Source: Nitrosopumilus sp. (GTDB lineage Archaea > Thermoproteota > Nitrososphaeria > Nitrososphaerales > Nitrosopumilaceae). From it: a DNA stretch of 64,000 nt. This document shows positions 59,620 to 63,963 of the stretch, one piece after another. The notes beneath the pieces were generated by a model, which was not told the origin of the DNA, searched no databases, and worked only from the letters and a program-made list of their open reading frames with translations. How positions within the stretch are numbered: the stretch's first letter is position 1; every line of letters starts with the position of its first letter. The DNA lies in assembly GCA_965223425.1 (NCBI GenBank), contig OZ245003.1:1056001-1120000 (forward strand), read 5' to 3'. The position numbers and the translations under genes were made by a program.

Positions 59620-59670
59620 CTGTGCTGTTTTTCTTGAATTTCAATTTATGAATCTTTGGGTGATTTAGGC

Positions 59671-61136
59671 GTAAGAGGCTAGGTTAGTCACGAACTCAAA
59701 CATTCTAGATCATACTGATCCAAATTCGATGATCCCTGACTCTGTCTAATGAGTGACTCGGAGATCAAGATATTACGGGATGCTCTGGCAAAATCATTTG
59801 CTGAAAACGACAGCTTGCGAAAGATTGTCAGCCAGTTGGCAGGCGATGTAAAAAAATCACAGGCAAGGGAAGCCGAGAAGGATTTGACAATAGCGGAACT
59901 AAAGAGGCGCGTAGCGTTCTACGAGAATCCGCACTCACCGCCGTCGGCAAACTCCATTCCCACGCGCCGAAAAAAGGCAGACCGTGCAAAAGGCGGTTCC
60001 TCCTCCTCCTCCTCCTCCCCTCCAAACAAGGGCGGAGCAAGTGCAGGCCACGTCGGCGCATCCCACAAGAGAAGGCCTGATCACACAACGGTGCACAGGC
60101 CAAAGAAATGCGCAAAGTGCGGCAGCAAAGGCATTACAGTTACAAAGACCACGACAAAGATGACAGTCGACATTCCGGAGATTCCAAGGACCGTATCCAC
60201 AAACAACGTCATACAGCACTGCACCTGCAGGTGCGGACATGTCACAACGCCCCGGGTCGGAATAGACGGAACATCGATTGGCAAGAACCTCATGACAATA
60301 ATCATGTCGCTGCATAAACAAGGCTGCAGCCTGAACTCAATCAGGGAGGCAGCAAGCCTGTATGACACGTCAATCTGCAAAAAAACAATACAAAACGCGC
60401 TGTTTGCATTAGGAGGAGCGTTGGAGTCAGAGGTAGAGTCATGGAAAGAAAATATTGGCAGATCAAAATACCTGAAACTTGATGAGACGTCATATACAAT
60501 ATACGACAAACTGGGATATGTCTGGGTATGCATCGGTGATGATGCGGTACTGATTCATGTGGACAGAAGCAGGGCCGCTGCCGTACTGGATCTTCACTTT
60601 CCTCACTGGGATTCCCGTGACAGTCGACGGTTATGCGGCATACAACAGTTTCAGAACGATTCAACGGTGCTGGTCACACATACTGTGTGATGCCGAATTT
60701 GAACAGGATGATGGTGATGATGATGATGAACCAAAAACCATGCTGTATGAGAAACTGTGTTTGCTATACCACGATGCAAAGCAGGTTGCGCTGCGGCCTG
60801 ACGCGCACACGCATTATGACTCGTTTGTGATCTCCTGCACGGCAATTGCGGATTCGTACAAGGGTTGTCCGGACTGCAAGTTCGGAGACAAGCTGGAAAA
60901 GGCCACACCAAACCTGTTTACGTTTCTAAAGCATCCCGGAATGGATCCCACAAACAACGAATCAGAAAGGATGCTTCGCCGGGTCGTCATATCGCGCAAG
61001 ATTAGACAGCGTCTTGTCACCGAAGCAGGCATGAAGGTATTTGGCATACTTGTGAGCTGCTTGCTGACATGGCAGAAAAGGGGCACCAGCATTCAAGAAG
61101 AGATACTGAGACTGTACTAGAGACCTAGCCTCTTAC
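59671..61136 (+). mobile_element. IS66-family single-ORF element; frameshifted transposase 59749..61120
   Basis: TIR GTAAGAGGCTAGGT / ACCTAGCCTCTTAC; coiled coil, zinc finger, LDET, QRCWSH, TNNESERMLR. Confidence 0.9.
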
Positions 61137-61191
61137 GAACCGCCTAAAGATATCCTTTTAATCAGGTTCCACTATTGTAATATTATAACCA

Positions 61192-61281
61192 CGTCGGGGA
61201 CGGGATTTGAACTCGCGAATTCGATGGTAACCGAAATAGAGTTTTTCAAACTCTCGCCATACCTATCTTGGCTACCCCGAC
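61192..61281 (-). tRNA. class II (long variable arm) tRNA with Ser-like body and GAA anticodon
   Basis: GTCGGGG TA GCCA AGATAGGTA TGGC G AGAGT TTGAAAA ACTCT ATTTCGGTTACCATCGAATTC GCGAG TTCAAAT CCCGT CCCCGAC G. Confidence 0.8.
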
Positions 61282-61298
61282 GTCTTCTTAATTACAAA

Positions 61299-61321
61299 AT
61301 CCGCTTAATAATCTGGCGGAT
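61299..61321 (-). promoter_or_regulatory. putative TATA box (TTATTAAG, -30..-23 to the tRNA) enclosed by ATCCGC-N11-GCGGAT
   Basis: position fits archaeal promoter spacing; 6-bp inverted repeat seen directly. Confidence 0.5.
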
Positions 61322-61519
61322 CAAATATTTCATGGAATGGTAAAATAATTTCTCGATCAGGATGTGGTGATCCGGTTGAAAATATGGAGGCGATCTGGTT
61401 GGGCCCGTATGACGTAACGGATGTATGGGTGACCGGGTCGTAAGGCCGGTGGATTAGCTTGAACACATGATAACCACCTCGTCGTAGTTGTAGTGATGGA
61501 TCGACCCCTGTATGCATAT

Positions 61520-63963
61520 CAGTAGTTCCCAGATGTAGATTTGCCGCAACCGCAACTGGCATCGGTTCTACTTGCCTCGATCATTGACAAACAACTCGTT
61601 TCTGCTTGTAATATGCACAATAAACAACGCCATGGTGAGTTTTTTTCCCGCAGAAGACACTCTTCCGTGCCTCTTTCCTGCATCAAGGCAGAACCTGGCA
61701 ATCCTCCACAGGTTGTACAGCAGCAGCGGCAGGTAAAACATCAGCAGCCTCACAGCCAGGGAGTTGCTGCATGTCCTGCCCATGATCTCCTTTATGACGC
61801 GAAATCCCGTCTCGATGCCCCATCTTGCGGTACTGCTCCGGTATGATGCCTGTCATGGCCCTGGCACTCCTGATGGGAATGTTTGTTGCAAACGCAATGT
61901 ATTGCTCCTCTTCCCCCTCCTTTTTCTTCTTCTTCTTCCTGTCTCTTTTGACAATTACAAGGTTGTAGGTCACAGTTACGCCGTCTTTGTTGGTCATTGA
62001 CTGCTGCGATACCTGGCTTGCCTTTCCGTCCTTGTACATCTTGACTATCCTCTTGATCTTGGAGTTCATGATGACAGGCATGGTGTAGCGGCACCCGCCC
62101 TTTCCTGCCTCTGTCATGCAGTCAGCGCTGTAAAAGGCGCGGTCGTACAGGAACACATTCTTTGAGTGTGCGCCCCTCCTCTGAGGATTTTCGTGCGTGT
62201 TTTGGCTATAAAATCGGCCAGTTTCTCCTTTGCTGGCAGCAGCTGCGACTCTGGGACAGCCTGCGAGGAGTCCCTGCCGACTCCGTGCACTGCGACATAC
62301 GAGAGAAACGTGGATGTTCCTGTCCTTGGACGCGACTTTCTTGTATGCTCCTGCAGCTGTTCCCCATGGTATGGCGTGTCCGTAACGTCTATTGCAATGG
62401 CGTCGATGTCCTGCAGCATTCCTGCACGGCAGGCGTGCCGTACCGTGCGTGCCAGCGTCCTTGCACACCAGCCCTGCACGTCTGCCGGTTCGACGCCACG
62501 GACTGCAGACATGACCGGGCCTGCATCAGGCGTACGTGCACCCGTGTCTTGAAGCCTGTTGCGCCGTACGGGGGATTCTACAAACGTGTTTCTCTCAGAC
62601 GCCCTGATTGGCACGTCCAGTATGTCGCCGCATCCGTATACGGCGTTGTGCCTCTCAGACATTGGCATGCCAAGCTTTTGAAACGACGAGCGCAGGATTT
62701 TAAACCGGTTTGATGTTATATTGTACTGGTGTGCGATCAGATTGTCTTGTGTTTGAAGGGGGGTTGTCGCCAAATTCACATCAAGCTGCCACCACCTGAA
62801 TATTTCGCCTTGCGGCACACTCTAGACGGTTTAGCACCTCAAGGTTCCATCCTATTGTCTTGCACAGTCCAAACCGCCTTCTTGTGGATGTCTTTCTGAA
62901 CCTGCACAGCAGCCGGTGGCCCTCTGTCTCCTCTGCTCCAAATATTCCCTCTATCATGCCTCTTTTTTTGTAGATCTCCCCGTCAAACAGCCCTGCGGCC
63001 TTTTTCCTGAACTTTTTTGTTCTGTTCACTGCATTGCCCCTCTGTTTTATGTTCGGGGTCATGCCGGCACCAAAGACAAGCCTGCAGTTCCTATCAGAAT
63101 CATACCCCCTGTCTGCATTGAACCTGCCTGCAAAGGCAATGCCTGTCTTTTTGATCTTCTTTAGCAGCGAGGCAAAGACTGTAGTGTCTGCCATCCTGTT
63201 GGATGTGATGCGGCAGGAGTGTATGACCTGCAGGCCCAGTACCGAGGCCACGTGCCATTTCAGGTATTTCTTTTGACGCTTTGCCTCCTGTTGTGCCTGT
63301 TTTTGGCCTTTTTTTGCACCCTTTCATACCTGTCAGTGGCAACGCCGCTGCTGTCTGATGCCAGCGTGAGATCAGAGACGTCAAATCCTGCAAGGCACGA
63401 TGCTGCCGTGACGGCAACCATGTCCTCAAGCCACGCAACAGGAATCTTTTGCATGAACCTGGCAATGGTGCTGTGATCCGGCAGGGGTTCGTTCCACGGC
63501 ATCCTCAGCAGGGCTGCAAGATTCTCCATGTCCCTGAATGTAAAGTCAAGGCACACCGTGAGTATGCAGAGAAATGCAAGCTTGTTTTTGTCATGTACCG
63601 GTTTGCGCCCCGCACCAGACCTTCTGGCATGTACGGGACACGGATTTTTCACAATCAAAGAAACTATATGGGACGTGAGAAAATCCAGTTCTTGGGTGTG
63701 GGCATCGTGATAGTACTTCCAGTACTGATCACGTCTCTTATGGTATGTCATTGGGAAACCCACACCTCCCTGATCAATATGCGTGAAAAATCACAAAATT
63801 AGATCATTTGGTCGAATTTGGCGACAACCCCGTTTGAAGGCTCATGACATCTTGCACACCGTAACCTAATCTGGATCTTTGCATTGCAGTTATTATGCGG
63901 TAACGCACCGGCATCTGGGCATAAATCTACATCTGGGCATAAATCTACATCTGGGAACTACTG
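61520..63963 (-). mobile_element. ISH3-like element A, frameshifted copy interrupted by an IS5-family element
   Basis: both TIRs present; high similarity to 858..2223; flanks ATAT / ATGT. Confidence 0.9.
62760..63831 (-). mobile_element. IS5-family element (IS903-like architecture); transposase in two frames 63260..63763 and 62781..63251
   Basis: perfect 18-bp TIR GGGGTTGTCGCCAAATTC; 9-bp TSD GTTTGAAGG; PDHSTI, SDSSG, ADRGYD, YKKRGMIEGIFG. Confidence 0.9.

Follow-up and report, generated by a model that had tools for sequence, protein, structure and literature searches.

Within a 64,000-nucleotide (nt) stretch of a Nitrosopumilus sp. genome (GenBank assembly GCA_965223425.1, contig OZ245003.1, positions 1,056,001 to 1,120,000 of the forward strand; referred to throughout as the window), we characterized the only transfer RNA (tRNA) gene detected, which joins the phenylalanine anticodon GAA to a long variable arm and the discriminator base G73. 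ARAGORN places the gene at 61191–61282 on the minus strand. Rfam places it at 61192–61281 (minus strand), where the match to RF00005 covers the full model (1–71) at 51.9 bits (E 3.1e-8), compared to a curated cut-off of 29 bits, and assigns the surplus bases to the variable region; cloverleaf and conserved core nucleotides are those of a tRNA. The gene (61192–61281, minus strand; designated PheA) is 90 nt long, belongs to class II by its long variable arm and does not encode CCA. The acceptor stem comprises 7 base pairs (bp; GUCGGGG/CCCCGAC), the D stem 4 bp (GCCA/UGGC) around a 9-nt loop, and the anticodon stem a perfect 5 bp (AGAGU/ACUCU) with the loop UUGAAAA. The variable region of 21 nt folds into a continuous 6-bp hairpin with the 4-nt loop UACC, and the 5-bp T stem, which carries the loop UUCAAAU, includes one A-C mismatch and one G-U pair. 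Overall, 23 of 24 pairs are formed and all core nucleotides are present, with U8, A14, G15, G18, G19 and C48 all kept. The cloverleaf of this copy is not recovered by minimum-free-energy folding on its own, and we relied on covariation instead. Contigs of four public sequencing runs contain no differing letter between 61108 and 61484; these runs represent three studies and at most three samples, and one of them is possibly the source of the assembly itself. The anticodon GAA is therefore not an assembly slip. Cloverleaf, anticodon, long paired variable arm and G73, as described from the letters alone in an initial annotation of this stretch, are real by ARAGORN, Rfam and the sequence, and we consider the gene confirmed as a real and intact tRNA gene.

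The initial annotation had treated the gene as a single oddity. The oddity is genuine, yet the gene is not alone, since it belongs to a large family with several anticodons. The same genome contains a second class II tRNA(GAA) with G73 (C1:1573168–1573252), which shows compensatory changes in acceptor and anticodon stems, a third, decayed GAA copy (C1:1598695–1598774) and two class II tRNA(GAU) genes with G73 (C1:1696869 and C1:1698003). The two GAU genes are part of a repeat array (C1:1696778–1699600) that also holds two decayed copies with deleted D arms. Each intact copy in this array lies directly upstream of a CxxC-containing open reading frame (ORF) of 127 amino acids (aa), for which we obtained no Pfam match, and ~90 nt of upstream sequence are repeated per unit.

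We collected the first further members by BLAST of relatives and by a pattern scan of public genomes, which returned metagenome-assembled genomes (MAGs) labelled Nitrosopumilus sp. When 13 GAA members are aligned with MAFFT, 97.1% of the cells pair and 11 of the 24 pairs change on both sides, a level of pairing and covariation that none of 500 shuffles reached and that drops to 32–51% in slid controls; G30:C40 is invariant in all 13. Relatives thus keep GAA within covarying stems, which the initial annotation had named as one of its checks. A covariance model (R1) was built from this alignment and used to search further genomes. The window tRNA scores 98 bits against it, the second best value in its own genome. 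At a threshold of 75 bits, we obtained 24 matches in 16 of 151 genomes of the genus, while the canonical tRNA-Ser(GCU) of every genus genome reaches about 66–74 bits. Outside the genus, members were found in one sister-genus genome only (151 genomes drawn from the order), and the 127 genomes of 19 other families yielded no match at E 1e-15 or better. A scan of IMG/VR with the GAA-arm pattern matched five stretches and no family member; two of the five belonged to tRNA arrays of bacteriophages whose tRNA-Phe is of the ordinary class I type. Additional members were obtained from lower-scoring matches, which we fetched, and from long matches in five rich genomes, where the calls of canonical genes are based partly on match length. 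This census is incomplete, as 1474 weaker matches of the genus scan lie outside it. It comprises 62 non-canonical class II tRNAs, counting genes as well as remnants, of which 6 have clearly decayed, and at least 22 of the 151 genus genomes plus the sister-genus genome are carriers, mostly large assemblies of few contigs.

The anticodons of these 62 genes are distributed unevenly: GAA is found in 39, GAU in 11 and CAG in 5, and UAU, UAA, CAU, ACG, GGA, CCU and ACC occur once each. A35 is present in 58, and therefore nearly all members read NUN codons (Phe, Ile, Leu, Met), which specify hydrophobic residues. At the discriminator position, 56 genes have G, 3 have A and 2, both decayed, have U; in the remaining one the base is unreadable. 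The same acceptor stem is combined with different anticodons: GGUGAGU with GAU, GAA and UAU, GUUGGCG with GAA, GAU and GGA, and GACGGGU with GAA and GAU. In one relative, the anticodon UAA is joined to the acceptor, D and T arms of a canonical tRNA-Ser(UGA), and in a second an acceptor and D arm similar to those of tRNA-Ser(UGA) stand beside the anticodon CAU, so that at least some members are duplicates of serine tRNAs altered at position 35. The anticodon loop CUGAAAA matches the CUGGAAA of tRNA-Ser(GGA) at every position but 35, a further link to serine. Across the family U33, an invariant 7-nt anticodon loop, G18G19, the T loop and G15:C48 are kept, and the anticodon arm of the window tRNA is identical to that of a member from another genus. 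The existence of a large family strengthens the case for function and at the same time shifts the question from a mutated tRNA-Ser to a family linked to mobile elements. As shown by the loci described below, this family resides in the accessory DNA of some Nitrosopumilaceae genomes, namely in piles of insertion sequences (IS), integrated elements and a methylase-rich island.

Three further observations concern individual class II genes. A Leu-bodied class II tRNA with A73, a GGTCAAA D loop and the glycine anticodon ACC is located at G120:C61:23026–23110 (locus L158), and a class II tRNA with G73 and the arginine anticodon CCU at G144:C9:356125–356209 (L150); mismatched class II tRNAs are therefore confined neither to NUN codons nor to G73. 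The 10-kb contig CBDHEM010000078.1 (L066) was binned to a Leptonemataceae MAG; in genes and tRNA it nearly equals OZ253567.1 (L056/L118), a chromosome labelled Nitrosopumilus, and is therefore probably mis-binned; its tRNA copy has A73 in place of G73.

A separate canonical tRNA-Phe(GAA) with A73 and a separate tRNA-Ser(GGA), for which the initial annotation had asked, were both found elsewhere in the genome. The former is a class I tRNA with A73 and G20. All four tRNA-Ser species are present, including the intron-bearing tRNA-Ser(GGA), as are four ARAGORN-called tRNA-Leu species with A73 and a canonical tRNA-Ile(GAU). An intron-bearing tRNA-Leu(UAA) with A73, which ARAGORN missed, is encoded on contig C1 near 2246703 (minus strand); tRNAs for Trp, Glu(UUC), Arg(CCG, CCU) and Pro(CGG) are likewise uncalled and probably contain introns.

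We compared the window tRNA to the identity rules given in PMC9976931. According to these, (i) bacterial-type and archaeal seryl-tRNA synthetases (SerRS) use G73 and G30:C40 as strong determinants and ignore the anticodon, (ii) phenylalanyl-tRNA synthetase (PheRS) needs G34, A35, A36 and A73 and, in A. pernix and yeast, also G20, and (iii) the leucyl-tRNA synthetase (LeuRS) of H. volcanii needs A73 and an AG in the variable loop (A47c/G47d). The window tRNA has the long arm, G73 and G30:C40 of a serine tRNA without a serine anticodon (NGA or GCU). With respect to phenylalanine, it has G34, A35 and A36 and lacks A73, the short variable region and G20, position 20 being U compared to G20 in the tRNA-Phe of its own genome. 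With respect to leucine, it departs in its G73, its variable loop UACC and its 9-nt D loop from the canonical leucine tRNAs here, which carry A73, YAG variable loops and GGYCAA D loops. As the initial annotation had argued on narrower grounds, the determinants of PheRS (A73, G20) and LeuRS (A73, variable-loop AG) are thus absent under these rules while those of SerRS are in place.

Among the similarity scores, those of the family model point in the same direction. Against this model, the serine tRNAs of the genome reach 63–70 bits, more than its leucine tRNAs (41–54) or its canonical tRNA-Phe (48). Against profiles of its own genome, the window tRNA scores 27.1 bits as Ser and 17.6 bits as Leu, where canonical controls reach 36–86 bits against their own kind. 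The Leu profile behind all family scores includes a tRNA-Leu(CAA) whose intron was removed imperfectly and whose own control score is weaker. The "serine body" that had been proposed is therefore modest at best. The genome contains a single SerRS-type gene; its five class IIa synthetase matches are taken, by count and length, as one enzyme each for Ser, Pro, Thr, His and Gly. No extra synthetase was found near family tRNAs, nor a second SerRS among the class IIa matches. The strongest argument for serine is a comparative one: as the anticodon changes between Phe, Ile, Leu and Met, G73 and the long arm remain constant, in spite of the A73 carried by the Phe and Ile tRNAs of the genome and the Leu tRNAs of the genus. 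Serine is our best guess for the identity of the window tRNA, given that it has G73, G30:C40 and the long arm and lacks the determinants of PheRS and LeuRS.

Upstream of the gene, the TATA-like box ATTATTAA is located at -31 to -24 (61305–61312, minus strand). A box near -30 fits the placement of archaeal TATA elements. Of 45 family members, 36 have an A/T run of at least 6 nt that starts between -33 and -26; they include at least four groups with otherwise unrelated upstream sequence, and ATTATTAA is likely the archaeal promoter element of the window tRNA. The inverted repeat that flanks this box (ATCCGC at 61316–61321 and GCGGAT at 61299–61304, minus strand) had been read as a possible operator. 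When these 60 nt are shuffled, however, inverted repeats of 6 bp with loops of 4–20 nt arise in 1128 of 5000 cases (23%); such repeats are also present in 21 of the 45 family upstream regions, and ATCCGC/GCGGAT itself occurs in none of the other 44; the repeat is at chance level and not conserved, and there is no case for an operator at the window tRNA. Conservation extends over ~40–90 nt of flank past family tRNAs. A motif of roughly CTTTAAAAAGTTTC recurs 28–40 nt downstream of many GAA members in different genomes (for example at loci L068, L078, L099, L104 and L118), so that the conserved unit reaches past the tRNA.

The tRNA and its upstream region form a single-copy island of ~376 bp (61137–61512). 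The segment 61137–61455 gives one BLAST match to the whole genome, and contig depth jumps and many loose ends coincide at ~61136 and at 61455–61460. On the downstream side of the tRNA, an IS of ~1.47 kb (59670–61136, plus strand) ends 55 nt from the gene. It contains two overlapping IS66-family transposase ORFs (59749–60690 and 60557–61120; PF03050 in both) and is present elsewhere in the genome in five near-full and two somewhat shorter copies of 97.8–98.5% identity, plus fragments. The split of this transposase into overlapping ORFs of 313 and 187 aa (59749–61120, plus strand) could reflect a programmed frameshift or shared decay. Upstream, an IS of ~1.25 kb (61513–62755) has 27 other near-full copies (93.6–95.7%) among the best 40 of 126 matches. 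It is followed by an IS of ~1.08 kb (62757–63832) with a DDE_Tnp_1 transposase fragment (62781–63251, minus strand; PF01609), of which at least seven other full-length copies (90–98%) and shorter ones exist. The whole insert of ~9 kb separates nadA/nadC/rpb7 from mscS/cysS/nadE. The accessory, IS-rich setting proposed in the initial annotation is thus borne out, the tRNA being located on a single-copy island between multi-copy IS.

Other family members share this kind of neighbourhood. They adjoin transposases (IS240, rve, DDE_3 and DDE_Tnp_1), integrases of the tyrosine type, MT-A70 methylases, DUF4326 proteins, a D5-type primase-helicase and a TFIIB paralogue. At four loci, tyrosine integrases are located 1–3 kb downstream of the tRNA; IS240-type transposase genes begin 49 nt past CAG-type members, and arrays that include decayed copies are common. 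In one genome (G135, 11% estimated contamination), ~9 class II mismatched tRNAs with GAA, GAU and CAG anticodons lie within 47 kb (C2:177001–228000; L139, L112, L140), divergent from operons that encode an Eco57I-like enzyme, N6/N4 DNA methylases and proteins of 756–1403 aa; this region looks like a defence island. A second odd family consists of ~72-nt tRNA-like genes that start with GGGC, end with GTCCAC and score 50–60 bits against the Rfam tRNA model, with weak anticodon stems and inconsistent ARAGORN anticodons (Leu, Phe, Asp). In the genome analysed here, these genes are located on C1 at 129092–129164 (plus strand) and at 769460–769531, 1454122–1454193 and 1629480–1629551 (minus strand); in other genomes they are found at L101:37–108 and L105:3499–3570, both less than 4 kb from class II family members.

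From these data, we propose that the window gene is a promoter-bearing member of a fast-turnover class II family with the standard 7/5 fold, most likely serylated and competing with tRNA-Phe, a reading to which we assign a probability of roughly 45%. Charging with serine is most likely because the features shared by members of all anticodons, long arm and G73, are cues for bacterial-type SerRS, and the determinants of PheRS and LeuRS are missing. SerRS would charge the tRNA irrespective of its anticodon, and the serylated tRNA would compete with canonical tRNA-Phe at UUC and UUU, the two codons with which GAA pairs, placing serine at phenylalanine codons at a low or conditional level. In 452 long ORFs, UUY and AUY (Y, pyrimidine) account for 39 and 51 per 1000 codons and are the most used hydrophobic Y-ending boxes; exchanges of hydrophobic residues for serine at the commonest hydrophobic codons would be close to the most damaging choice. 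Speculatively, the benefit would fall to the carrier mobile DNA and not to the host, the toxic tRNA serving in addiction, exclusion, abortive infection or takeover. The furthest-reaching form of this proposal, in which mobile elements and defence islands carry "weaponised" Ser-accepting class II tRNAs whose anticodons were repeatedly retuned (N35 to A) towards the commonest hydrophobic codons, so that their expression would flood the proteome with hydrophobic-to-serine errors and act as a toxin, is an unlikely one on present evidence.

A number of observations weigh against serylation or against a toxic role. The body of the window tRNA is, by the profile scores above, only weakly Ser-like, and among the 45 family genes profiled, 14 lean towards Leu, one is tied (18.2 versus 18.3 bits) and one lacks a Ser score. 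At its base the variable arm of the window tRNA, with 2 nt, 6 bp and 3 nt, differs from that of canonical serine tRNAs (0 nt, 5 bp with a GCAA loop, 1 nt) and resembles that of leucine tRNAs (2 nt, 3 bp, 3 nt), which makes docking to SerRS uncertain. The sister-genus member (genome g18) combines a class II body with A73, G20 and GAA, the complete PheRS set, and charging with phenylalanine is therefore conceivable for some members. A35 could have been inherited from Leu-type ancestors instead of being selected, and the share of GAA is inflated, since 8 members were collected with a GAA-containing pattern and the model was trained on GAA members. When we clustered the ORFs at ~40 loci in search of a conserved partner or regulator, none was shared by most of them; the recurring ORFs were transposases, an integrase, MT-A70, DUF4326, D5 primase, TFIIB and small ORFs. 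Finally, a toxic tRNA with an ordinary-looking promoter would be costly.

Four alternatives were weighed. The one that survives best, although it too is unlikely, holds that the gene is a tRNA-shaped module that does not decode, serving as a recombination or attachment site of integrating elements, as a signal for the processing of adjacent transcripts by RNase P/Z, or as a decoy or sensor for anticodon nucleases in defence conflicts. It would account for the tyrosine integrases at four loci, for the IS240-type transposase genes 49 nt past CAG-type members, for the position of both intact GAU copies directly upstream of the 127-aa ORF, for the ~9 members among methylase and very large genes within 47 kb of one genome, and for the flank of ~40–90 nt that is conserved past the tRNA. 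A precedent is given by bacterial allo-tRNAs with the anticodon UAU, which PMC5389517 suggests are not used in translation. A mere module, however, would have no need for the U33, invariant 7-nt loop, G18G19, T loop and G15:C48 that the family retains, nor is a promoter box of its own, as most members have, expected of it. Moreover, the last 17 nt of the tRNA (at most one mismatch) occur in full genes only and mark no element ends in three genomes, and 16-mers of the neighbouring tRNA-Thr yielded no copy resembling an attachment (att) site, the sole repeat being 20 nt inside a different tRNA gene at C1:2124834. Because thaumarchaeal att sites may be as short as 8 bp (PMC6563490), these negative results do not exclude integration.

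Less probable still is a supplementary cognate function, in which the family provides extra Phe, Ile, Met or Leu tRNAs for mobile elements, PheRS and IleRS recognise their substrates through the anticodon, and the long arm is an inherited scaffold. Viral and mobile-element tRNAs often look aberrant. The high usage of UUY and AUY and the complete phenylalanine set of the sister-genus member fit such a function, as does the statement in PMC9976931 that the anticodon is the major determinant for PheRS, IleRS and MetRS, PheRS even charging a yeast tRNA-Tyr that is given GAA. Yet G73 is found in 56 of 62 members whatever their anticodon, although canonical Phe, Ile and Leu tRNAs have A73, and the window copy has U20 where canonical tRNA-Phe has G20. 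Any long-armed tRNA with G73 would still be open to competition by SerRS, and the host already has canonical tRNA-Phe and tRNA-Ile(GAU).

That the window copy is a relic, stranded between IS insertions and decaying without function, is improbable. Its 376-bp island between IS copies, the A-C mismatch in the T stem, the decayed copies in this and other genomes and the fast turnover of the family are in line with decay, but the copy scores second best in its genome against the family model, forms 23 of 24 pairs around a complete core, retains an intact promoter box and has an anticodon arm identical to that of a member from another genus.

The remaining alternative is an artefact, that is, a miscalled or misassembled tRNA-Ser(GGA), an ordinary tRNA-Phe whose variable region is interrupted by an intron, or the missing tRNA-Leu(UAA). 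A single base separates GAA from GGA and likewise from UAA, and tRNA-Leu(UAA) was not found by ARAGORN in this genome. The archaeal splicing endonuclease needs a bulge-helix-bulge, in which 4 bp lie between two 3-nt bulges. The variable arm of the window tRNA is an unbroken hairpin with no such bulges, and an intron in this arm was rejected by sequence under this motif definition. Non-canonical introns do occur in thaumarchaeal tRNAs (10.1101/614032), and the only tRNA-Val(CAC) of the genome (C1:931661–931754, minus strand; A73) has a 24-nt hairpin insert in its variable region, which is kept in a second genome (L048:4659–4752, minus strand) and makes the gene either a carrier of a non-canonical intron or a long-armed tRNA-Val. 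An artefact is nevertheless refuted as far as sequence data go and retains next to no probability, given the identical sequence in contigs of four runs from three studies, GAA in dozens of homologues, the separate genes for tRNA-Ser(GGA) and tRNA-Phe(GAA), the true tRNA-Leu(UAA), and arms that range from 14 to 22 nt among intact members with a paired base.

Returning to a serine-accepting family, its closest functional counterpart may be the bacterial allo-tRNAs (Mukai et al., Nucleic Acids Research 2017; PMC5389517). The two would share a long arm, serine-type identity and many non-serine anticodons including Ile (UAU). Allo-tRNAs come from microbes of soil and sediment, where they lie close to genes of transposons and of toxin-antitoxin systems; they too occur as active and decayed copies, sometimes clustered, and some of them may not serve in translation. 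Allo-tRNAs are defined, however, by an 8/4 or 9/3 acceptor/T architecture with a 12-bp acceptor branch, which the archaeal family fails: its 7-bp acceptor and 5-bp T stems, both covarying, form the standard 7/5 fold, and its anticodons are mainly GAA and GAU. The nematode nev-tRNAs (PMC3333845, Hamashima et al., Nucleic Acids Research 2012; PMC4300185, PLoS One 2015) are likewise a class II multigene family, with anticodons (Gly CCC, Ile UAU) that are neither Leu nor Ser, and are charged against the code in vitro. They keep A73 and are leucylated (PMC3333845), in contrast to G73 in 56 of the 62 archaeal members, and are eukaryotic nuclear genes with no link to mobile elements, whereas the archaeal family resides in mobile DNA.

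Nearer home, the tRNA-Ser(GGA) and tRNA-Ser(GCU) of the same genome share G73, G30:C40, the 4-bp D stem and the 9-nt loop with the family and are the best-scoring canonical tRNAs against its model; they differ by another acceptor, the family has a longer arm without the GCAA loop and with 2–3 unpaired bases at its 3′ foot, and the overall profile similarity is weak. The tRNA-Ser(CAG) of CUG-clade yeasts is a class II tRNA of serine identity with G73 and a leucine anticodon that underlies a fixed chromosomal codon reassignment. Five archaeal members carry the same combination of CAG and G73, but as accessory, multi-copy genes beside cognate tRNAs. The Streptomyces tRNA-ProX is another natural tRNA in which identity and anticodon do not match.

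Natural tRNAs with mismatched identity and anticodon are rare (yeast CUG, nev-tRNAs, allo-tRNAs and tRNA-ProX), and each has shifted views on how strictly the code is kept. A full-text literature search, which covered articles without their supplementary tables, turned up no account of such tRNAs for Archaea or ammonia oxidisers, and the mismatched class II family described here is to that extent previously unreported. Standard pipelines will call these genes tRNA-Phe or tRNA-Ile, which bears on annotation, and they may offer synthetic biology archaeal tRNA scaffolds that tolerate anticodon changes. If the "weaponised" reading, itself unlikely, holds true, the family would represent the first natural system of deliberate mistranslation in Archaea. 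With dozens of members, a G73 that is kept, a strong anticodon bias towards hydrophobic codons and a location in mobile or defence DNA, it provides a testable case for asking whether mistranslation is used on purpose and, if so, by the host or by the mobile element.

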